Shown: positions 39,570 through 60,874, numbered from the stretch's first letter. The stretch is DNA of 64,000 nucleotides from Methanobacteriota archaeon (GCA_963787255.1 CAWBCJ010000001.1:64001-128000); one strand, 5' to 3'. Program-made: numbers and translations. Notes: generated from the sequence alone by a model not told the origin.

Positions 39570-39872
39570 ATGTTTTGTCTAGAAACATATTTACAGGAAT
39601 CAGAAGATTATGAAGTATTGATATCCCGTGCAGGCTTTAAAGACTGTGCCCGGGTAATTGATGAGCATGCTCCTGAAGTAATTCACGTTAAGCCTGGCGA
39701 AAAAATTTTAGGTGCAAGAATTATTGGAATACCTCCAGTTCCCGTTGGAATCAATAAAGAAAAGGGCACTATACTTTTTCCTTACACCAAACCCTGCTAT
39801 GGAACTGCAGTAGTTGAAATACCCGTTGGAGAAGAAGAAATTTCCAATGTAAGAGAACTAAACATCGATTAA
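39570..39872 (+). CDS. DUF1894 family protein
   Basis: MFCLE..YEVL..FKDC..PYTKPCYGT; typical partner of DUF1890. Confidence 0.85.
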   Translation: MFCLETYLQESEDYEVLISRAGFKDCARVIDEHAPEVIHVKPGEKILGARIIGIPPVPVGINKEKGTILFPYTKPCYGTAVVEIPVGEEEISNVRELNID

Positions 39873-39974: not shown

Positions 39975-40325
39975 TTAGTGGTGTTGAATTAGCGCTATTC
40001 GGACTCCATTTGGGTCTTCTATAAATGCAAGAAGTCCAACTGTTATTTGCATGGGTTCCATTGTGACTTTAGCACCTTTAGATTTAAGTTCTTTAATTGT
40101 AGTGTTTAAGTCTTCAACATCCATTCCTATTGAAAATAATCCAGGTTCATCTACTGGATTTTTAATGATTTCCACCATAGTTTCTCCTTCACCTTTCAAT
40201 AGTGTAATTTTTCCTGCTGGTCCTAGATCGTATTGACTATCTATTTCAAATCCCATAACTTCTGTATAGAATTTAATTGACTCATCCATATCATTAACTA
40301 TCATGGTAGCGTATTTAATTTTCAT
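39975..40325 (-). CDS. VOC/glyoxalase family protein
   Basis: [17 protein letters not shown]...[12 protein letters not shown] (ORF open to 40343). Confidence 0.88.
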
Positions 40326-40506
40326 ATTCTTTTCACCATCCATTGATTCTATTTTTTTTCCAATCTTTTATAAAAATGGAAGCTTGTTCATTATAGCTCA
40401 TTTAAATCAAATCCCATAATCAACTTTTATTTTCTATTTAATAATAAAAGAAGCAATATAATTAAATTTTTCTAATTTTTCATGAAAAATGAGTAATCCA
40501 AATAAT

Positions 40507-40546
40507 TATAGCGACCTTATGGCTAAAAATAGTCGAGTTTAAGGAG
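40507..40546 (+). repeat. Dispersed intergenic imperfect palindrome, copy 1
   Basis: TATAGCGACCTTATGGCTAAAAATAGTCGAGTTTAAGGAG. Confidence 0.85.
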
Positions 40547-40567
40547 TAAAAATAACAAAATTAAATT

Positions 40568-41209
40568 CTATTTTTTCTTCCTTCTTTTCTTTATAATATA
40601 ATACAACACTAAGAAGATAATAGTTAAAGTTACAATATTGCCCAACGTGGATAACTGACCCTCAAGTTCCAGATAAATGTTTCCAAAAAACCACGACAGA
40701 AGGCCCCATGCAAATATCTGCACCATAGAACCGAAAAATGTGGTGAGAAGGTACTTTTTCAGGTCGTATTTTATTAAGCCGCAGAAGAGGTTGATGGCAA
40801 TGCTAGGAATAATGGGAATGCATCGGGCCAGAAAGATGGATAGATCATCAAAGCGGCTTTTTTTGAATCTTTTTTCGATATTAGCCACATCCTCCATTGA
40901 TACCCCCATATATTTCCCGGTTCTTTCTATGAATGGTTTTTCTAATTTATAGGCCAAATAATAGTAAAATAGAGAACCTATGGTGGTTCCTAGAGAAGCA
41001 GGAATGACAATTTTTATTAAAAGAATCCCTAATGAATTGAGAGATAGGGAAACTCCTTGTAAGGTGATGAGGCTAGTTGTTATTACAATTATGCTGGCGG
41101 GGATAGGGACAATGATCTGCTCCAAAATACACCCCAAAAAGACAGCCCAAGCACCATTATTAATTATAAATGATTCTAAACCACTTAATACAGAATATAA
41201 CATTATCAA
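40568..41209 (-). CDS. DedA/VTT family membrane protein
   Basis: LEQIIVPIPA, GTTIGS, FLARCIPIIP. Confidence 0.88.
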   Translation of the reverse strand: MIMLYSVLSGLESFIINNGAWAVFLGCILEQIIVPIPASIIVITTSLITLQGVSLSLNSLGILLIKIVIPASLGTTIGSLFYYYLAYKLEKPFIERTGKYMGVSMEDVANIEKRFKKSRFDDLSIFLARCIPIIPSIAINLFCGLIKYDLKKYLLTTFFGSMVQIFAWGLLSWFFGNIYLELEGQLSTLGNIVTLTIIFLVLYYIIKKRRKKK

Positions 41210-41470
41210 ACCTCTAAATATAGATTAATTTCTTTTTATAGATTATCCCTTGTTTTTAGTTCGTTTTATAAAGCAATAAAGTTTTTCTTCACTGGAGTTC
41301 TCTGAAAACTCTATATCATCATCTTATAATTAGGAGTGATCCTATAATTTTTTTTTATGAATCTCCGTTTTTATTCATTAATAGATTAATGAACTTAATT
41401 TTAAGCATATCATTTTCCCTTCTTCAATCATATTATACATAGTTTTAATTCTATATTAAATATTATATAT

Positions 41471-41895
41471 TTAAATTGAATTTAACTCTTTTAATCCATT
41501 AAAAAGGAAATATACGCCTATTATGAAAATTAAGCCTGCTGTTAAGTATTGCCCATTCTTTTGAATCCACTTATTTAATTTAGAAAGAATATCATCGGCC
41601 TTTTGGGGAACAAAAAAATACAATAATTAAAGGTATTTCCACTAATAAAAGAGTTATTATCACCAGTACTATTAATGAAATCATTTTACTAGTCCATATT
41701 GCATCAGATAATGCTATTTCATTACTTGCAAAAAATACCAAAACAGTAGTGATTAAATTTAAAGAAAAAAGACCCATTGCCAATAAAGCGCTGCTCCAAA
41801 ATCCCAAAGCATTTCTCTCTTTTATCTGATTTTCTATTTTCTCCTTATCATAACCATAATCCTTCTTAATGACAGTTTTAATTCCAAAATAAAAA
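41471..41895 (-). pseudogene. 5'-truncated, frameshifted GAP (Sap-like) family membrane protein remnant
   Basis: YFGIKTVIKK...NLITTVLVF..EIPLIIVFF then shift in a T7 run (41612-41618) to VPQKADDILSKLNKWIQKNG...GLKELNSI*; no start. Confidence 0.6.
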
Positions 41896-42029
41896 ATATA
41901 TTAATTTTCTATAATTTTTTTGAAAATTAAATGTGGTTATCTTTTTTCAATTGTAATAAATAACATCAAAAAGTTATTATTATAATTTAAACATATGATG
42001 TTATAATCTAGTGAGAGGTGAAAAAAATC

Positions 42030-42314
42030 ATGAAATATATTGTTTTGGGGAAATGGACAGATCAGGGAAGGAAAACTACTAAAGATGCTAAAAAAAGAAT
42101 TGAAACCGCACAAAATTTAGTAAAAGAACAAAATGGGAATATGAGCATTTGCTTCACCATGGGCAAATACGATTTTGTCGCAATTGTAGACATGCCCAAC
42201 GAAGAGGGCATGGTAAAAGTTCTCATGAAACTTAACATTATGAACAATGTTATAACTGAAACTCTTAAAGCTTGGACCGATTCTGAGTTCGTAAAAATAG
42301 TTTCTGAACTTTAA
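42030..42314 (+). CDS. GYD domain-containing protein
   Basis: YIVLGKWTDQG...TMGKYDFVAIVDMP...TETLKA. Confidence 0.85.
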   Translation: MKYIVLGKWTDQGRKTTKDAKKRIETAQNLVKEQNGNMSICFTMGKYDFVAIVDMPNEEGMVKVLMKLNIMNNVITETLKAWTDSEFVKIVSEL

Positions 42315-43321
42315 TTAACAAATTTAGCACAAAATAAAAATTACTAGCAGAGGATCATTAAATTAATAAAAGTAAGCAAAAATTAAAAATAATTGTAGGT
42401 TAAGAGTTGAATCTGAATTTGTCTAATTTAAAATCAAATTCACTCATTTTAACAATGAAATGTGCCTAATCTGGAACATTTAAATTTAATATTTTCCTTT
42501 ATAAAAATGTTCTTTCAAGTCTTTAGAGTTATATTGGACAGAAGATATAATGGTCTTCTGAGTGTCTAACAAAAATCAATATCTCCAAATCCTACTATTT
42601 GGAATACCATTTTTTTTAACTCCTTATTTTTTTAAATTTCAAACTATAAACCAACAACATCCCCGCAACAAATGATAAATAATATCCCCACAATTCAAAC
42701 ATTTTTAACCGCCCCTCTTGAAAATAACCAATGCTTTTCAATTATCTATTATGTCCAATTTGCATTAGCAAGTAGATTATGCTACTATTGGTTTTGTTCT
42801 ATTACATATTCTTTTCGTTTTTTCATTTTGCAATTAATATCCTGGTTTCTATGAAAGCATTTTTAATTCTTCCATTTTAAAAATATATAAAAAATGAGCA
42901 TAAGTTTCTGGTTTCATCTACATTTGTAGCAAGACTTAAACCTGAAAGTGGCATTCCGCCCAGTTTTTCAAAGTCAGCTTTACTAATAATTTTAACTTGT
43001 TCATCCTATTCCGAAGGGATTGTTTTCGTCTAACATTATAAATGTATTTGTAGTGTTCTATTCTGCGTTCCCGCATCTTTTTATCAATTAATATGGATAC
43101 ATTCTTACATTTACGTACTGTTGCATCTGTCATGTTCATTTTTAACACCGGTAATCTATAAGTGCTGTTATTTTTAATGGGTTTGGTGTAAGAGCAGGAA
43201 AGTAAAATTTTTTTTAATATTTTTTTATGAGAATTAAATATTACTTTTAATAAATTATTTATTAATTAGTTTATATAACTAATCAGTAAATATATGCAAA
43301 AAAAATAAGAGGAGAAAGAAA

Positions 43322-43774
43322 ATGCAGAAATTAAATCATTCAATTATTATTAATGCGCCAAAAGATAAGGTTTGGCATACCATGCTCGATAATGACACCT
43401 ACAGAGAATGGACAGAAGTATTTCATGTTGGTTCACACTATGTCGGTGACTGGAGTGAAGGTAGCAAAATACTCTTCCTTGGACCTGACGAAAATGACAA
43501 GATGTCTGGAATGGTGAGCAAAATAAAAGAGAATAGGCCGTATGAATACATCTCAATTGAGCACATTGGCATCGTAGCAGATGGAAAAGAGGATACTTCG
43601 AGTAAAGAAGCTAAGGACTGGGCTGGAGCACTTGAAAATTACACATTTAAAGAAATGGATGGTAAAACTGAAGTGATGGTAGATGTGGATACAGATGATG
43701 AGTTCGTTGAGATGTTCCAGGAAATGTGGCCGAAAGCACTGCAAAAACTCAAAGAACTGGCGGAAAAAACATGA
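43322..43774 (+). CDS. SRPBCC (AHSA1-like) domain protein
   Basis: IIINAPKDKVW..YREWT..GDWSEGSKI..WPKALQKLKEL. Confidence 0.85.
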   Translation: MQKLNHSIIINAPKDKVWHTMLDNDTYREWTEVFHVGSHYVGDWSEGSKILFLGPDENDKMSGMVSKIKENRPYEYISIEHIGIVADGKEDTSSKEAKDWAGALENYTFKEMDGKTEVMVDVDTDDEFVEMFQEMWPKALQKLKELAEKT

Positions 43775-44238
43775 GTGAAAATTTACAACAATCCCCAGAA
43801 CCAAACCCTGCACTAAAGCGCCTAAATATATTGGTAGGTACATGGAGTATAAAAGGCCGTACACTTGATTCTACGGAAGATAATGTTTCTGCAAGGACTA
43901 CTTTTGAGTGGTTACCTGGTGGATTCTTTCTAAAACAGACTTTTGAGGCTGATTTTGCAGGCGTAAAAATTCAGAGCTTGGAAATAATTGGTTATGACCC
44001 CTCAAGTGATACTTTCCCTTCCACTGTCTATTCCAATCTGAGTGGAGATCCGATTCCATATCGATATGATATTAAAGGCAAAGACCTAACAATCACAACA
44101 GATCTCGCTGGTGGGGCTAAAAGTACTGGGAAAATTAGTGAAGACGGGAATACATTCACCGGAGGGTGGAGACCAAAGCCCGGTAAGGAAGGCTCCGGAA
44201 ATGTGGCTTATGACTATGTGGGCAAACGGGTGAAGTAG
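43771..44238 (+). CDS. DUF1579-like beta-barrel protein
   Basis: PNPALKRLNILVGTW...EWLPGGFFL...EIIGYD; ATGA overlap with upstream stop. Confidence 0.7.
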   Translation: MSENLQQSPEPNPALKRLNILVGTWSIKGRTLDSTEDNVSARTTFEWLPGGFFLKQTFEADFAGVKIQSLEIIGYDPSSDTFPSTVYSNLSGDPIPYRYDIKGKDLTITTDLAGGAKSTGKISEDGNTFTGGWRPKPGKEGSGNVAYDYVGKRVK

Positions 44239-44308
44239 AGGTCATATTTGGCTGAATGTGCGACTTAATGGATAAAAAATAGAATAAAGTAGAATAGGAG
44301 AAATTTTA

Positions 44309-45112
44309 ATTAAAAACAAAAGTAGTTATGCTAAAGTAAACGGCCTTAATATGTATTATGAGGTCCATGGTAATGGTAAGCCATTAGTCCTGCTTCACGG
44401 CTCTTTTATGACAATTGCTCTCAACTTCGGGAAGATGATACCGGCTTTTGCCAGAGACCGGAAAGTTATCGCTATCGAGCAGCAGGGACACGGACACACT
44501 GAAGACATTGATCGTCCAGTGAGCTATGAGCAAATGGCAGATGACACGGCAGAGCTTCTTCGACAATTGGGGATCGAAAAGGCTGATATCTTGGGATACA
44601 GTCTTGGCGGCACTACTGCCATAGAGCTTGCCATCCGCCATCCGGATCGCGTACGTAAATTGGTGATTATTTCGGCACCGTATAAGAGGGAGGGTTGGTA
44701 TCCGGAATACTATCCAACGATGGAGAGTCTCACTCCCGAGATGCTTATAGGTTCAGGACTTCCGGAAGCATATGCAGACGTAGCTCCAAATCCAGATAAT
44801 TGGGCAAAACTAGTTGAAAAATTCAAAAAACTTGGCGTAGAATTCATCGGTAGAACGCCTGAGGAATTTCAATCGATCAAAGCTCCAACTCTGATTATGA
44901 TTGGGGATTCAGATAGCGTTCCTCCCGAAAAAGCTGTTGAAATGTTTAAATTGCTTGGGGGTGGGGTATTCGGAGATATCGTTGGGCTCCCACGTTCTCA
45001 ACTTGCAGTTATCCCCGGTACTAATCACGTTGGCGTAATGGAACGGGCTGATTGGTGGATTCCAATGATTAAAGAGTTTCTTGATAAGCCTATGGAATCA
45101 GAGGGCTCCTAA
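44309..45112 (+). CDS. Alpha/beta hydrolase
   Basis: LLHG, GHGHT, GYSLGG nucleophile, GDSD, PGTNH; first ATG 44351, homology extends to ATT 44309 after GGAG. Confidence 0.88.
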   Translation: MKNKSSYAKVNGLNMYYEVHGNGKPLVLLHGSFMTIALNFGKMIPAFARDRKVIAIEQQGHGHTEDIDRPVSYEQMADDTAELLRQLGIEKADILGYSLGGTTAIELAIRHPDRVRKLVIISAPYKREGWYPEYYPTMESLTPEMLIGSGLPEAYADVAPNPDNWAKLVEKFKKLGVEFIGRTPEEFQSIKAPTLIMIGDSDSVPPEKAVEMFKLLGGGVFGDIVGLPRSQLAVIPGTNHVGVMERADWWIPMIKEFLDKPMESEGS

Positions 45113-45378
45113 GTAATGCCTGAAACCTGAAATAAATTACAAAATTTAGAATTAATAGAATCTCATGAAAGTGTTTATAGTATTTCAGAACCTATTTTTG
45201 AAAGCTTGGCTTAAAAAAAGAATACGATGAAAAAATTGTTTTTCCAAGGAAATAACCACCCCGAACATGGAAAACAGTTGGTAGAATTTATAAAAAGACT
45301 AAATGAACTCTAGTGGACTTATATTTCATTTACCCAATAGCTAAACGATTTTTTACTTGTTAATATAATATGAAATAA

Positions 45379-46198
45379 ATGAGGAATAAAATTATGATTG
45401 AAAGAAAAGGTAAATACGCCAACGTGAATGGAATGAAAATGTATTATGAAGTTTCCGGCAAGGGCGATCCACTAATCGTATTGCACGGTGCTTACATGAA
45501 CATAATATCAATGGGAGAAATAATCCCCAGGCTCGCTAGGACCCACAAGGTCTATGCGCTCGAATTCCAGGGCCATGGTCGGACCACTGACATTGACCGC
45601 CCCATCACCTATCCGAACCTGGCAGACGATGTAGCTGCTTTTATGGACGCGGTAGGTCTTAAGAAAGCTGATGTATTCGGTTATTCCGTGGGTGCTGAGG
45701 TCGGATTGCAACTCGCCATCCGCTACCCAGAGAAGGTGAGCAGACTTATCGCAGCCTGAGGCGCCTACGATCTTGAAGGTTGGCAGCCGGAGTTCAAGGC
45801 AGCTATCCCGCAAATGACCGTTGAGATGATTGTCAATCTGCCATTCGCTGAAGACTATCGTAAGCTTGCGCCTGATCCAGATGGTTTCCCCGCTCCTTGT
45901 GGAGAAGCTGATAGCTCTCGAGAAGGAGCCGATGGCATGGGAAGACGGATATCAGGGCTTTGAAGACCCCGGTACTGATTATCGCTGGAGATGCAGATGG
46001 GTAACGCTCGAACATTCGATCGCCCTGTTTCGGTTGCTCGGTGGAGGCATTATGGGTGATATGGGAAAACCCTTACCTGATTCACGTCTTGCAATTATGC
46101 CGGCAACATCGCATACGGCTGTCATTACTCAGACCGATCTTTTAATCGCTTTCATTGAACCTTTCCTGAAAGGAGAAACGCCAAAGGGATTTTTTTAA
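45379..46198 (+). pseudogene. Alpha/beta hydrolase pseudogene
   Basis: GYSVG, in-frame TGA at 45757-45759 and further frameshifts ~45895-46000; paralogous to 44351 gene (GGGIMGD..LP.S.LA.MP.T.H). Confidence 0.85.
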
Positions 46199-46418
46199 AA
46201 TAGACTTTGGGGAAGGCAGATATTAATGGATTTCATGGAAGCAACACAAATTAGGTGCTAAATGCAGTAAATAAACATTAAATGTAGAAGAAACCTTTTA
46301 TTCATTTAGACAATTTGAAGCTAAAGGATTAGCAGTTTTAACAAAAGGATCCCAGCTGAAAAAAAATAAGATTCGTTATGAGAACATAGGTTTAATATGA
46401 ATTATTGAATTTCTTCTC

Positions 46419-46459
46419 TATAACGACCATGTGGCTAAAGATAGTCGAGTTTAAAGAAG
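46419..46459 (+). repeat. Dispersed intergenic imperfect palindrome, copy 2
   Basis: TATAACGACCATGTGGCTAAAGATAGTCGAGTTTAAAGAAG. Confidence 0.85.
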
Positions 46460-46577
46460 TGATTAATTCTTCAAAATAGCATGGAAATTTATCTCAAATA
46501 ATATAATAAAAAATATAAATTTATTATTACTAGTTTTAACATAACCAATATTACAATATTTTATGTGAGGTGAAAAC

Positions 46578-46856
46578 ATGATTTATTTAATTGGAGAGCT
46601 AAAAGTCGAAAATTATGATAAATGGAAGCCCATTTTTAATGAAAGAGCAACTGCACGTAAAGAAAGCGGCGAAGAAGAAGCTCATCTCTTCCGTAACTCC
46701 GACGACCCCCATGACGTTGAGATTATATTTAAGTGGGACAATAAGGAAAATGCAAAAAAGTACATGGAATCAAAATCCGTACAAAAAGTTCTAAACAATG
46801 TAGGCGCCAAAATAGAAAGAGTTACTTACCTTGATGAAATAGAAAAAACAATTTAA
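46578..46856 (+). CDS. Small dimeric alpha/beta barrel (ABM/cyclase-like) protein
   Basis: KVENYDKWKPIF...LFRNSDDP..V.IIFKWD...AKKYM; GAGGTG RBS. Confidence 0.7.
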   Translation: MIYLIGELKVENYDKWKPIFNERATARKESGEEEAHLFRNSDDPHDVEIIFKWDNKENAKKYMESKSVQKVLNNVGAKIERVTYLDEIEKTI

Positions 46857-46865
46857 TATAAATTC

Positions 46866-46914
46866 TATGGATGAATATTATTTCTAAAGGAATATAGAAA
46901 CCTATTCATCTATA
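46866..46914. terminator. Long interrupted hairpin between convergent genes
   Basis: GATGAATA..TTTCTA-loop-TAGAAA..TATTCATC. Confidence 0.5.
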
Positions 46915-46943
46915 ATCCTTTATTTTAATTAATTACAGAAAAC

Positions 46944-46987
46944 TATAAACGACCAATACGGCTAAAAAATAGTCGAGTTTAGCGAAG
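46944..46987 (+). repeat. Dispersed intergenic imperfect palindrome, copy 3
   Basis: TATAAACGACCAATACGGCTAAAAAATAGTCGAGTTTAGCGAAG. Confidence 0.85.
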
Positions 46988-47026
46988 CAAATAAACATAA
47001 AAACTAAAGAAAGATTTATATATTTT

Positions 47027-47898
47027 TTAATCTGCTGAAAAAAATCTTCGCAGTTCTTGTGCGATGATTTCCGGCTTGCCATAGTCTTGTGCTGATCCAT
47101 GATCAAGACCTTCTAATTCAATGCGATTAGAGTTGGGCAAGACTTTTTCCAGGGCATCAAGAGTGTCTTTAAATGCATCCCGACTTTTACTTCCCATCAT
47201 TAATAAAACCTCTGCAGATACATCTTTGTAATCTTCAATTGTTCCTTCGGTTTTTCTAACAAGTTCTATTTCAGAGGGCATTGTAGGAATAAGATCTCGA
47301 AGCGGTACATCATCGCCTTTAACGTTCCTGGCATCCAATATTAATGCAATTTTGGAAAATGATGTCAATAAGAAACGCGGCAACCAGTAAATAGATTTAG
47401 GCGACTGTGCACCTTTTATACCAGTTACCATGGCATCAGCCACTTTACCTTCAGCCACTTCCCGGCCAAAACGATGCATGGTAGATTCTAATAGATCCAG
47501 TTCTGGTTGGCCAAGATAAAAGAGCGGCTCATAAGCAGCAACCTTCCAGATAGCCAGATTAGAGATTGCAGCATGCAGTGCAAATAATGCACCGTCCGCT
47601 GTTCCAAAGACATAGTGCGCCCCTGTTTTTTTAAGAGTGCATCCAGGTCTTCATCTTCCCTTTCTATACCGTAGTCCTCGCCAATTGGTCCACTTAAACC
47701 ACGGCCACGGCGATCTGGAATATAAACTGTAAATGCATCTGAAAGTAAGGTACCGAGCTTCATAAGATGTTGTGATGCATTTATACCTCCATGCAGGAGA
47801 ATAACACCTTGACCATTGCCCATTTGCCTGTATCCAATGGTAGTTCCATCTTTTGAAGTTACAGAATCTGTTGTGTATTTTTGTTTTGTATTACTCAT
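47027..47898 (-). pseudogene. Alpha/beta hydrolase-fold protein split by a 1-nt deletion in an A7 run
   Basis: SKDGTTIGYRQ.G.G..VILLHGG, PDRRGRGLS; one extra A at 47626-47632 fuses 47488-47898 with 47027-47479 via KKTGAHYVFGTADG...AYEP. Confidence 0.75.
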
Positions 47899-60632: not shown

Positions 60633-60874
60633 AATCATATTCGTTATATAATAATCATAACCAATAAAAATAGTGAATTTAAAATAAGTCAAGAGGGGTT
60701 TAAATGATTTTATTGAAATATTACATTTTTTTTTATTAGTTTCCCTGCACTTTTCTATTTCTGAACCTTTATAACCTCAAGAATGAATTCTACATGCTTT
60801 TACAGCCGTTCCCAAACCGTTTCCATGAGTTTTTCATCAGTTTCTTCGAAAAAAAATAATTGTAAATTTCTATT

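Follow-up and report, generated by a model that had tools for sequence, protein, structure and literature searches.

The repeat of about 44 bp that separates small accessory gene modules in a Methanobacteriota archaeon is probably the recombination site of a Methanobacterium-specific gene-cassette system, integron-like in organisation but built on dif-like sites. It was studied in a stretch of 64,000 nucleotides (GCA_963787255.1, CAWBCJ010000001.1:64001-128000), here called the window, and in the genomes of relatives. Its sequence resembles that of a double-stranded Xer/dif core site with one canonical arm. The initial annotation had suggested an undescribed site of cassette capture or shuffling with an attC-like structure; the arrays, the assortment of flanks at a 6-bp centre and the re-use of cassettes in several species uphold the former part, while the attC-like structure is not supported.

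Anatomy and distribution of the repeat

The unit consists of a 26-bp left part of the general form CTATAACGACC-ATGT-GGCTAAAAATA, a 6-bp centre, GTCGAG, and a right arm, TTTAACGAA (general form TTTAACGAAAT). Of 77 sites, 34 have exactly GTCGAG as the centre, and most of the others differ from it by a single change. Three copies of the motif lie in the window, all on the plus strand (40507-40546, 46418-46458 and 46944-46986; Table 1), and its 21-mer core, with up to three mismatches allowed, is matched three times in the window and never in 100 shuffles. The left part of site 3 has one additional A and a variant spacer, AATAC. The whole-genome profile search added no copy within the window's part of contig C1, in agreement with the initial annotation, which had described three co-oriented plus-strand copies and none in the core at 1-39 kb. 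It had also placed copies 1 and 3 at 20-40 nt past the stops of minus-strand genes; the measured distances are 23 nt from the end of copy 1 to the stop of the VTT/DedA gene (40568) and 42 nt from the end of copy 3 to the stop of ORF 47027-47479. The neighbouring genes are those it had named (VOC, VTT/DedA, GYD, SRPBCC, DUF1579 and alpha/beta hydrolases), and the plus-strand ABM-like gene begins 120 nt downstream of copy 2. Its two weak copies are present, but both are degenerate relics; the relic at 60640-60690 consists, in this order, of the canonical left arm TTCGTTATA, TAATAA, a box-like TCATAACC, AATAAAAATA, GTGAAT and TTAAAATAA, with AAAAATA and TTAAAA directly on either side of GTGAAT.

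Table 1. Repeat sites, relics and accessory modules in the window
Feature	Position	Strand	Remarks
VOC/glyoxalase gene	39975..40343	-	left of site 1; first gene beyond the conserved synteny block
Site 1	40506..40546	+	left part 40506-40531 (box TATAGCGACC 40507-40516, then TTATGGCTAAAAATA); centre GTCGAG 40532-40537; right arm TTTAAGGAG 40538-40546
Module block	40538..46449	+	5.9 kb, between sites 1 and 2
VTT/DedA	40568-41209	-	within 5.9-kb block
Small membrane ORF	41592-41807	-	within 5.9-kb block
GYD	42018-42314		within 5.9-kb block
SRPBCC	43322-43774		within 5.9-kb block
DUF1579	43726-44238		within 5.9-kb block
Left-part relic	44260..44283	+	GCGACTTAATGGATAAAAAATAG; centre and right arm missing; lies between DUF1579 and hydrolase
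Alpha/beta hydrolase	44351-45112		within 5.9-kb block
Split hydrolase	45379-46198		within 5.9-kb block
Site 2	46418..46458	+	left part 46418-46443 (box TATAACGACC 46419-46428); centre GTCGAG 46444-46449; right arm TTTAAAGAA 46450-46458
ABM-like cassette	46450..46977	+	right arm of site 2 through centre of site 3; gene 46578-46856
Site 3	46944..46986	+	left part 46944-46971; centre GTCGAG 46972-46977; right arm TTTAGCGAA 46978-46986
Alpha/beta hydrolase split into two ORFs	47027..47898	-	right of site 3
Degenerate composite relic	60640..60690	+	between convergent genes

The conserved synteny block ends at about position 39870 of the window. Its syntenic core is 70-83% identical between species, and the VOC/glyoxalase gene is 84-93% identical to copies dispersed among relatives. 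The 5.9-kb block that separates sites 1 and 2 is probably a fusion of several cassettes whose sites have decayed.

The profile scan of this and other Methanobacterium genomes, which the initial annotation had put forward as a check, gives 22 matches at E<0.5 (about 22 copies) in this genome (G000), with arrays on contigs C9 (four +), C22 (five +) and C1 (three +). The core, with up to two mismatches, is found in 13 of 22 other genomes of the same genus and in 0 of 18 outside it (reversed control, 0). An exact-pattern scan of the genomes of 185,579 species yields 23 stretches, of which 15 come from records with Methanobacterium, Methanobacteriaceae or Methanobacteriota in the title, one is the same contig binned elsewhere, and seven are single bacterial matches, roughly the chance expectation. 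As judged from these scans, the motif family is Methanobacterium-specific. The longest array described here, in G017, has 19 matches across 26.5 kb, all in plus orientation, and other co-oriented arrays occur in G022 (eight +), G015 (seven +) and G020 (five -). The single orientation proposed at the outset thus holds for these arrays, with the exceptions of two G018 sites that run the opposite way and one partial plus match beside the five minus matches of G005. The last site of the G017 array is without the canonical right arm.

The arrays set apart accessory modules of one to five genes with mixed directions. Around 74 sites, the left neighbour has its stop facing the site in 37 cases and its start in 37, and the right neighbour has its start facing the site in 28 and its stop in 46; these orientations do not fit a plain promoter or terminator. 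Many cassettes encode regulators of the MarR, TetR, HxlR or TrmB type, often a regulator together with its target.

Reassortment of flanks and re-use of cassettes

Flanks were compared for 77 sites from 10 genomes. Left and right flanks assort independently of each other: where sites of different genomes have a flank in common, 18 pairs share the left one only, 26 the right one only and one both. Excess identity extends from -45 to -4 in left-sharing pairs and from about +12 onwards in right-sharing pairs. Each half of the site is co-inherited with the flank on its own side, the left part on the left and the right arm on the right, which places the exchange at or near the centre. A left-part variant, ATATAGCAACCGTACGGTTAAAACAA, accompanied by its own upstream flank, is joined to five different right arms and flanks, and an identical right arm with its flank is found behind either this variant or the canonical left part.

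Whole cassettes recur in different surroundings. The ABM-like unit (window 46419-46986) can be aligned over its full length with its counterparts in G017 (84.5%) and G020 (83%), the alignments stopping at the sites; it is flanked by two sites in both of these genomes and starts at a site in G018, and its neighbours differ each time. In each of G017, G015 and G022, an MFS cassette has a site on either side. Cassette genes are 83-93% identical between species, as against 70-83% for the adjacent syntenic core, and this higher identity is counted as evidence for horizontal movement. Ends of HSPs fall within 45 nt of a site in 23 of 136 cases, as against 6.9 expected (maximum 17 in 2000 trials). 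Most alignments terminate at gene borders, and only these 23 of the 136 ends lie at sites. Of the indels between contigs C9 and C22 of G000, one of 9.35 kb is bordered by a site on the right alone, and one of 2.1 kb starts at a half-site-like ATCGTTATAG, its other end being without a site. No circle, deletion junction or recombination event at a site was seen in assembled contigs of soil metagenomes, where the circular excision products envisaged in the initial annotation were sought.

Related core sites and the candidate recombinase

All six arrays seen are preceded, upstream of their first site, by a special site, TTCGTTATA-GTCGAG-TTTAACGAA, in array orientation. It is a 9-6-9 inverted repeat of the tyrosine-recombinase type. 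In G001, G005 and G020 it adjoins a conserved upstream flank, and the downstream cassettes differ or are absent; homologues of the split hydrolase at 47027-47898 (87-88% identity) sit just upstream of it in G005 and G020. The array sites retain the spacer and the right arm of the core design and have only one canonical arm: compared with the canonical arm, their right arms agree on average at 7.5 of 11 positions and their left arms at only 4.4 of 11.

The same arms are found family-wide in a core site, (A)CTTCGTTATA-N6-TTTAACGAAG(T), in which a 6-bp spacer separates inverted arms of about 11 bp, as in the Xer/dif type, where the spacer is 6-8 bp. Of 61 good genomes, 48 keep the arms and vary in the centre, as do 16 of 18 genera (controls, 0-1). 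Several to about a dozen such sites with differing centres occur per genome, a number that is unusual for dif. One of them, with the conserved centre GAATTG, is single-copy in many genera and is a candidate dif. The local cumulative GC-skew maximum is 6 kb away from this copy in G000 and 16 kb away in G019, and in a third genome, G115, the GC skew is without a clear turning point around it; the distance of this copy from the best Cdc6 gene is 171 degrees in G019 and 88-160 degrees in four other genomes. In G000 it lies on contig C25, and the arrays are on C1, C9 and C22. The relevant part of a study of archaeal dif sites gives TAA-N6-8-TTA, at the inner ends of the arms, as their most conserved trait (PMC11840125). 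This feature is not present in the candidate dif, the arms of which end in ...TTATA-N6-TTTAA..., and only 9 of 22 arm positions are in common with the Thermococcus kodakarensis (T. kodakarensis) dif. The G000 site that does fit TAA-N6-8-TTA (C25:230185) falls inside an open reading frame.

No tyrosine recombinase (PF00589) was found in or beside the arrays. This agrees with the view of the initial annotation that the recombinase is encoded elsewhere. The sole strong tyrosine recombinase scores 353 bits on the XerA model NF040815 (cut-off 220) and 128.8 bits on the integron-integrase model TIGR02249 (cut-off 265). XerA is present once per genome and is the only recombinase common to the array genomes; a serine recombinase occurs in just one of five array genomes, and the distribution of a second integrase family does not track the arrays. 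By elimination, XerA is the most likely candidate for the cassette enzyme. The missing TAA-N6-8-TTA and the low arm match of the candidate dif, the skew in G115, the Cdc6 distances of 88-160 degrees and the multiple same-arm sites count against it.

Alternative explanations and a model for cassette exchange

Ordinary homologous recombination between dispersed 40-bp repeats might shuffle the modules, the repeat itself having another job or none. It would likewise leave breakpoints inside the repeat, and the breakpoints map only to the 16-nt stretch from -4 to +12, which is also its most conserved part, a resolution that cannot separate the two processes; the lack of an array-linked recombinase and of excision products in the soil-metagenome contigs would also be expected. 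This reading is nevertheless unlikely, because it leaves unexplained why 44 bp are conserved where core genes are only 70-83% identical, why a complete 9-6-9 repeat sharing centre and right arm heads every array, and why arms are conserved family-wide around free centres. In addition, the variant left part is never chimeric with the canonical left part downstream of -4 among the eight copies listed. The exchange would be site-specific rather than homologous. It is also improbable that the repeat is a regulated archaeal promoter/operator travelling with the gene it drives, with the family-wide palindromes as operator sites for a single transcription factor. On the minus strand the repeat does read as a half-site TTCGTTAAA, CTCGAC, a TATA-like TATTTTTA and a half-site GTCGTTATA, the left part contains TATTTTTAGCC, and a start codon follows 10-70 nt on in several copies (GNAT genes of C9, C18 and C22; paralogues in G017); sites of dimeric regulators also typically have conserved half-sites and a free centre, and many cassettes encode regulators. 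The right arm is, however, inherited with the right flank and not with the supposed promoter, which would fire antisense at 37 of 74 sites, since the left gene points toward the site there. Convergent genes surround window copy 3 and the palindromic sites of L057 and L062, and no neighbour gene family is conserved across 15 palindromic sites. The TATA-like element may additionally serve as a cassette promoter.

The intergenic position of the sites, at a median of 65-69 nt behind stop codons on either side, and a T5 run on the minus strand would suit a small non-coding RNA gene, a terminator or an RNA-processing signal. This is very unlikely: a search of 40300-47200 against Rfam gives nothing at E up to 1, the Rfam matches at gathering score in the window are three tRNAs only, and the plus strand is without a T run though 37 of 74 left neighbours end there. 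Moreover, neither strand folds better than shuffles. Single-stranded DNA folds of the three copies on both strands have minimum free energies of -1.6 to -3.2 kcal/mol (z -1.08 to +0.12 against dinucleotide shuffles), so the unit is not a hairpin, and the imperfect palindrome of the initial annotation, with its AAC/GTT ends and extrahelical bases, is not supported. Pairing of the outer AAC/GTT is likewise not conserved among the 61 aligned sites, but the outer pair columns were out of register there, and the fold test alone counts. Integron attC sites are imperfect inverted repeats of about 55 bp or more that fold to a hairpin with extrahelical bases, and their consensus boxes are R' GTTRRRY and the complementary R'' RYYYAAC. 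The 61-site consensus reads GAG-TTTAAC and TATAAC, so that GTTTAAC and TATAAC misfit these boxes; a minority with A at +8 (17 of 61) reads GTTAAAC, which fits GTTRRRY. Co-oriented arrays between small accessory genes are likewise found here, and archaeal metagenome-assembled genomes with canonical-attC integrons have been reported (PMC9668308). A true attC recombined as a folded single strand by IntI is still extremely unlikely, given that there is no stable hairpin, that no IntI was found (the best recombinase being the one far below the integron-integrase cut-off), that genes run in both directions and that modules are often multi-gene. The repeat is short, dispersed, confined to one genus and clustered near contig ends, as might be the end or scar that a transposase-mobilised insertion sequence, MITE or REP-like element leaves. 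Such an element is a highly improbable source, since the flanks are unrelated right to the edge of the 44-bp unit, the unit is single and directional and without a palindromic fold, and ordinary accessory genes, not transposases, lie between copies. Neither inverted partners at IS or MITE distance nor target duplications were found, and a search of G000 (95% complete) revealed no Y1 (IS200/RAYT) transposase (PF01797); the scars of a tiny non-autonomous element considered initially are likewise not supported.

The sites resemble several known systems in part. The pdif sites that flank Acinetobacter dif modules alternate in orientation, and the sites of IMEX elements have one good arm and one degenerate arm. 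Unlike pdif sites, those of Methanobacterium are all direct and combine one canonical arm with a special 26-bp left part. In the relevant parts of the reports, Acinetobacter dif modules are accessory modules between dimer-resolution look-alikes, shuffled between replicons without a recombinase of their own, host Xer being presumed to act (PMC13141974; PMC6449649); these are plasmid-borne, whereas the Methanobacterium sites are on chromosomal contigs of an archaeon with a single XerA. IMEX elements, as partly described in PMC5357621, similarly integrate at a host core site, dif, via XerCD without their own recombinase and form tandem co-oriented copies, although the arrays here are not at the candidate dif, their landing site has a different 6-bp centre and each unit is a single gene instead of a phage or island. 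Integrons and CALINs, including archaeal integrons, share tandem co-oriented sites that separate small accessory units, a distinct site heading the array, as attI does, cassettes common to several species and, in CALINs, arrays without an adjacent integrase (Ghaly et al., 2022; PMC9668308, in the sections concerned). They differ from the Methanobacterium system in that its site is about 44 bp, non-folding and of double-stranded arm-6 bp-arm design instead of R''-L''/L'-R' boxes, IntI is not found here, genes run both ways and many modules have two to five genes. Archaeal XerA/dif, as far as covered in Cortez (2010; PMC2958812) and PMC11840125, has in common with it inverted arms around a 6-bp spacer, XerA once per genome and, as a candidate here, one conserved single copy near the GC-skew maximum (in two genomes, with no clear turning point in a third); the arms, the lack of TAA-N6-8-TTA and the multiple same-arm sites differ.

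For the cassette system favoured here, each site would comprise a cassette-borne left part, the exchange region GTCGAG and a right arm, the last two being those of the family-wide CTTCGTTATA-N6-TTTAACGAAG core, an arm-spacer-arm design used by tyrosine recombinases. The special site at the upstream end of the array would be the landing pad. The partner of a circular cassette (left part-GTCGAG-right arm) would be this site or any of the array sites, and the exchange would take place within the 6-bp centre, after which each cassette would begin with its own right arm and finish with its own left part, and recombination of two direct sites would re-excise the cassettes between them. Because one centre and one direction are common to all array sites, cassettes could be gained, lost and reordered; same-arm sites elsewhere have different centres and thus would not be partners. 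The enzyme would be encoded outside the arrays, the housekeeping XerA being the likeliest candidate. It is a tentative proposal that Methanobacterium thereby has an analogue of the integron, in which XerA acts on dif-like sites with a common 6-bp centre to take up, excise and rearrange cassettes of one or a few genes at a conserved landing site and to trade them between species. If it is true, the same-arm sites with other centres, one of them dif, would form a XerA network in which spacer incompatibility prevents cross-recombination. The shuffling of modules between species would resemble that of bacterial integrons, on a different type of site, one like those of chromosome resolution.

The motif in the window and its distribution

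The initial annotation had reported three co-oriented copies of an intergenic motif, and all three were recovered on the plus strand at the positions it gave. With up to 3 mismatches allowed, the 21-base core has 3 matches in the window and 0 across 100 shuffles, and the 6-bp centre GTCGAG is exact in 3/3 copies. The observation holds except for the palindrome: on both strands, the three copies fold no better than shuffles (z −1.08 to +0.12), and this single-stranded DNA folding rules out an attC-like hairpin. The two weaker copies proposed at the same time are degenerate relics. No match of the motif region to known RNA families was found. Two alpha/beta-hydrolase genes of the variable region are each divided into two ORFs, probably by frameshifts, which fits decaying cassette cargo.

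The genome-wide scan that had been proposed was performed with a profile made from ten copies, and yielded 22 matches at E<0.5 in the window genome (G000; 2.47 Mb, 29 contigs), a lower bound because many copies adjoin contig ends. The flanks of separate copies show no relatedness right up to the edge of the unit. At ≤2 mismatches, the core was found in 13/22 further congeneric genomes and in 0/18 from outside the genus, with 0 matches for a reversed-core control. An exact 18-base pattern, scanned over one genome per species (185,579 species, 596 Gb), occurs in 23 stretches: 15 are in records titled Methanobacterium, Methanobacteriaceae or Methanobacteriota, 7 are single bacterial matches, roughly the chance level for such a pattern in 596 Gb, and one is a 1466-bp contig that appears with one name and length under both a Methanobacteriaceae and a Patescibacteria bin (L103, L107), probably a binning duplicate. 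The motif had 0 matches in viral contigs.

Features and arrays (positions without a contig are those of the window, which is C1:64001–128000; C, contigs of the window genome; other G numbers, compared genomes; L, loci from these)
Feature	Location	Orientation	Remarks
Site 1	40506–40546	+	between start of minus-strand VOC gene and stop of minus-strand VTT/DedA gene
Site 2	46418–46458	+	plus-strand ABM-like gene begins 120 nt downstream
Site 3	46944–46986	+	between stop of ABM-like gene and stop of a minus-strand ORF
Relic	44260–44282		
Relic	~60657–60682		
Divided hydrolase gene	45379–46198		
Divided hydrolase gene	47027–47898		
567-bp indel	41342–41908		small membrane ORF 41592–41807
13-nt direct repeat	41333–41345, 41900–41912		
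Profile matches, G000	C1, C9, C22	all + within own contig	three (the window copies), four, five
AT-rich repeats	C9 10782–11179; C22 4658–5056; C18; C26; C25; L043:12500–12600		~300 nt
GAATTG site	C25:296821–296846		
Array, G017	L035 + L036	19 +	spans 26.5 kb
Array, G022	L039	8 +	
Array, G015	L042	7 +	
Array, G020	L037	5 −	
Array, G005	L034	5 −	and one partial +
Array, G018	L041	6 −, 2 +	

Records titled with Methanobacterium species, that is, cultured-type methanogens, also hold arrays, of up to 19 sites that follow a simple grammar. The expectation that copies keep one orientation is borne out in the arrays of G017, G022, G015 and G020, and fails in G018 and, by one partial copy, in G005. One to five genes lie between neighbouring sites, and the type of cargo matches that of the window: regulators (TetR, MarR, HxlR, TrmB), transporters (MFS, CorA, TauE, ABC), enzymes (VOC, ABM, metallo-beta-lactamase-fold, FMN-reductase), and GNAT, HEPN, DUF488, HXXEE and TRAM proteins. 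These genes run in both directions. At the 74 sites with ORFs on either side, the left neighbour faces the site with its stop in 37 cases and with its start in 37, and the right neighbour with its start 28 times and with its stop 46 times (binomial p 0.047); the median distance to the site is 65–69 nt for stops and 159–211 nt for starts.

Site anatomy and reassortment of flanks around the centre

An array site of about 44 bp consists of a 26-bp left part, the centre and a right arm, and the consensus of 61 such sites is AAATATAACGACCATGTGGCTAAAAATA / GTCGAG / TTTAACGAAATA, the least variable positions being TGGCTAAA..TA-GTC.A.-TT. The centre is exactly GTCGAG in 34/77 sites, and the remainder are mostly one change off. 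Each array also has one special site, ACTTCGTTATA-GTCGAG-TTTAACGAA, in which two inverted arms of 9–11 bp flank GTCGAG as in the array sites. In 6/6 arrays with a visible upstream edge, it precedes the first array site on the upstream side and points the same way; it is a candidate landing pad. Array sites retain its centre and right arm; on average, 7.5/11 positions of their right arm agree with the canonical arm, and 4.4/11 positions of their left arm, which is different. A box farther to the left, TATAACGAC, resembles the right arm in direct orientation. The left part includes a TATA-like element and may double as a promoter for minus-oriented cassettes. The inner stretch of the array left parts, −19 to −8, reads GACC-ATGT-GGCT. 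A variant left part has the perfect palindrome AACC-GTAC-GGTT there, with a paired change of G to A at −19 and C to T at −9 that is not used by any explanation so far; the palindrome may be a dimer binding site.

The flanks of 77 sites in ten genomes (G000 and nine relatives) were compared in all pairs over 120 nt past the motif on each side, overlapping double sites being excluded from the pair counts. The left flank alone is shared in 19 of all pairs (18 between genomes), the right flank alone in 28 (26 between genomes), and both flanks in 3 (1 between genomes); the counts without filtering are 18, 29 and 7. Pairs with a common left flank are more alike than unrelated pairs from −45 to −4, and those with a common right flank from about +12 on, which places the exchange point in the stretch from −4 to +12, where GTCGAG is located. 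The distinctive left part ATATAGCAACCGTACGGTTAAAACAA, which has its own upstream flank, precedes five different combinations of right arm and flank, and one right arm with its flank follows ATATAGCAACCGTACGGTTAAAACAA in G017 and G022 and a canonical left part in G005. These individual cases say the same as to an exchange point at the centre.

Whole cassettes recur in different surroundings. The segment from site 2 to site 3 (46419–46986) has end-to-end alignments with G017 (84.5%) and G020 (83%) that do not extend past the sites; in G018, the start of the ABM-like cassette is preceded by a variant left part, and its neighbours differ in all four genomes. An MFS cassette of G017 has a site on either end there, and also in G015 and G022. 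When the G017 array was aligned with other genomes (alignments ≥250 bp), 23/136 alignment ends were ≤45 nt from a site, against 6.9 expected from random placement (maximum 17 in 2000 trials), an enrichment that is real but modest because most ends are gene borders. Between species, cassette genes are 83–93% identical, and the syntenic core in the 16 kb left of the variable region is 70–83% identical in the same genomes.

Core synteny ends at about 39870, directly before the VOC gene. Homologous genes precede the special site in G001, G005 and G020; beyond it, G001 has no array site in the remaining 7 kb of its contig, and the arrays of G005 and G020 differ. Contigs C9 and C22 of G000 are 92–96% identical and differ in a block of 9.35 kb. 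On the right, this block ends precisely where a canonical left arm has its outer edge, and 6 bp connect that arm to an array site's box; the left edge of the block is without a site. A separate AT-rich repeat family with 18 matches in G000 usually lies 130–160 nt upstream of plus-strand genes and often ends in the canonical left arm AAGTCGTTATAG adjoining an array or palindromic site. It could act as an accessory element of the recombination site, as at cer or psi, or be a shared promoter region.

A search of public runs matched 20 DNA runs and no RNA run, and the best four DNA runs, soil metagenomes as contigs, were compared over 40000–47600. No joint was found at any site in the four contig sets, a result that is neutral on excision because rare circles cannot appear in contigs; loose contig ends at 40509/40542 and 46419/46453 are other motif copies. 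Near-identical contigs from 2/4 runs lack 567 bp, with the junction inside the direct repeat CTATAATTTTTTT; the indel is at strain level, and the 44-bp site is not involved in it.

Candidate enzyme and dif-like sites of the family

As the initial annotation had supposed for the recombinase, no tyrosine recombinase is encoded in or adjoining any array. A Y1 transposase was not found in G000. A serine recombinase is present in only 1/5 array genomes, and a second integrase family, represented by an ORF on C18 of G000, is absent from motif-rich genomes, and genomes that lack strict motif matches have close orthologues of it; both were rejected. XerA is present once per genome, and the ORF of G000 scores 353 bits on NF040815 (cut-off 220), its best solved relatives being the XerA structures of P. 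abyssi and T. acidophilum. Elimination and the design of the site make XerA the candidate for the enzyme that would act on array sites.

The arms are also found across the family. The pattern CTTCGTTATA-N6-T(T/A)TAACGAAG occurs at ≤2 mismatches in 48/61 genomes of ≥95% completeness and in 16/18 genera, with 2–25 matches per genome (both strands of a palindrome counted) and 0–1 in controls; when the full GTCGAG-centre pattern was searched with three mismatches allowed, these were located in the 6-bp centre. These sites are dispersed in long intergenic regions, some between convergent genes, and no conserved neighbour gene family was found at 15 palindromic ones. An orthologous palindromic site with the centre GTACAG lies between PAS and ferredoxin genes in G143 (L058) and G115 (L066), and what directly follows it differs: a stretch of about 620 nt with a DUF1801 gene in one of the species, unlike sequence of about 160 nt in the other, possibly a single-cassette insertion in another genus.

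One of the sites, CTTCGTTATA-GAATTG-TTTAACGAAG, is single-copy and identical or nearly so in at least 8 genera. In G000, 6 kb separate it from the cumulative GC-skew maximum of its contig; in G019, the skew maximum of a 400-kb sample is 16 kb away and the best Cdc6 gene 171 degrees away. The distance to Cdc6 is 88–160 degrees in four other genomes, and the skew of G115 has no clear turning point around the site. Single copy, conservation and these positions make it a candidate, not a proven, dif site of Methanobacteriaceae, unlike the Thermococcales type. It is without the TAA-N6-8-TTA feature of archaeal dif as described in the part of PMC11840125 consulted, and has 9/22 arm positions in common with the T. 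kodakarensis dif given there. A Thermococcales-like dif was also sought in G000, where the sole one of 59 TAA-N6-TTA candidates matched in G019 lies inside a conserved ORF; the family-wide scan with this AT-rich pattern is uninformative because controls scored equally high. The Methanosphaera dif in the supplement of Cortez 2010 (PMC2958812) could bear on the assignment.

Relation to known systems and meaning

Comparative evidence supports the reading of the motif as a putative cassette recombination site with its recombinase encoded elsewhere. The analogy drawn with attC is better replaced by one with a dif-like, double-stranded core site. No earlier description of the system was found in the literature searched, supplementary files being outside its scope. 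Among described systems, integrons (PMC9668308), Acinetobacter dif modules (PMC13141974, PMC6449649) and IMEX elements (PMC5357621) come closest. Cassette platforms of archaea have been reported only as canonical integrons, from metagenome bins (PMC9668308).

The assembly and exchange of small accessory genes in archaea are poorly understood, and here the cassettes are more alike between species than the core genome is. If the reading is true, the integron principle was invented independently, on a double-stranded dif-like site, and gene flow in methanogens becomes directly testable through circles and XerA. The sites would mark the variable gene pool of Methanobacterium, with its efflux pumps, detoxification enzymes and regulators, and the pair of site and enzyme may serve as a genetic tool for methanogens.
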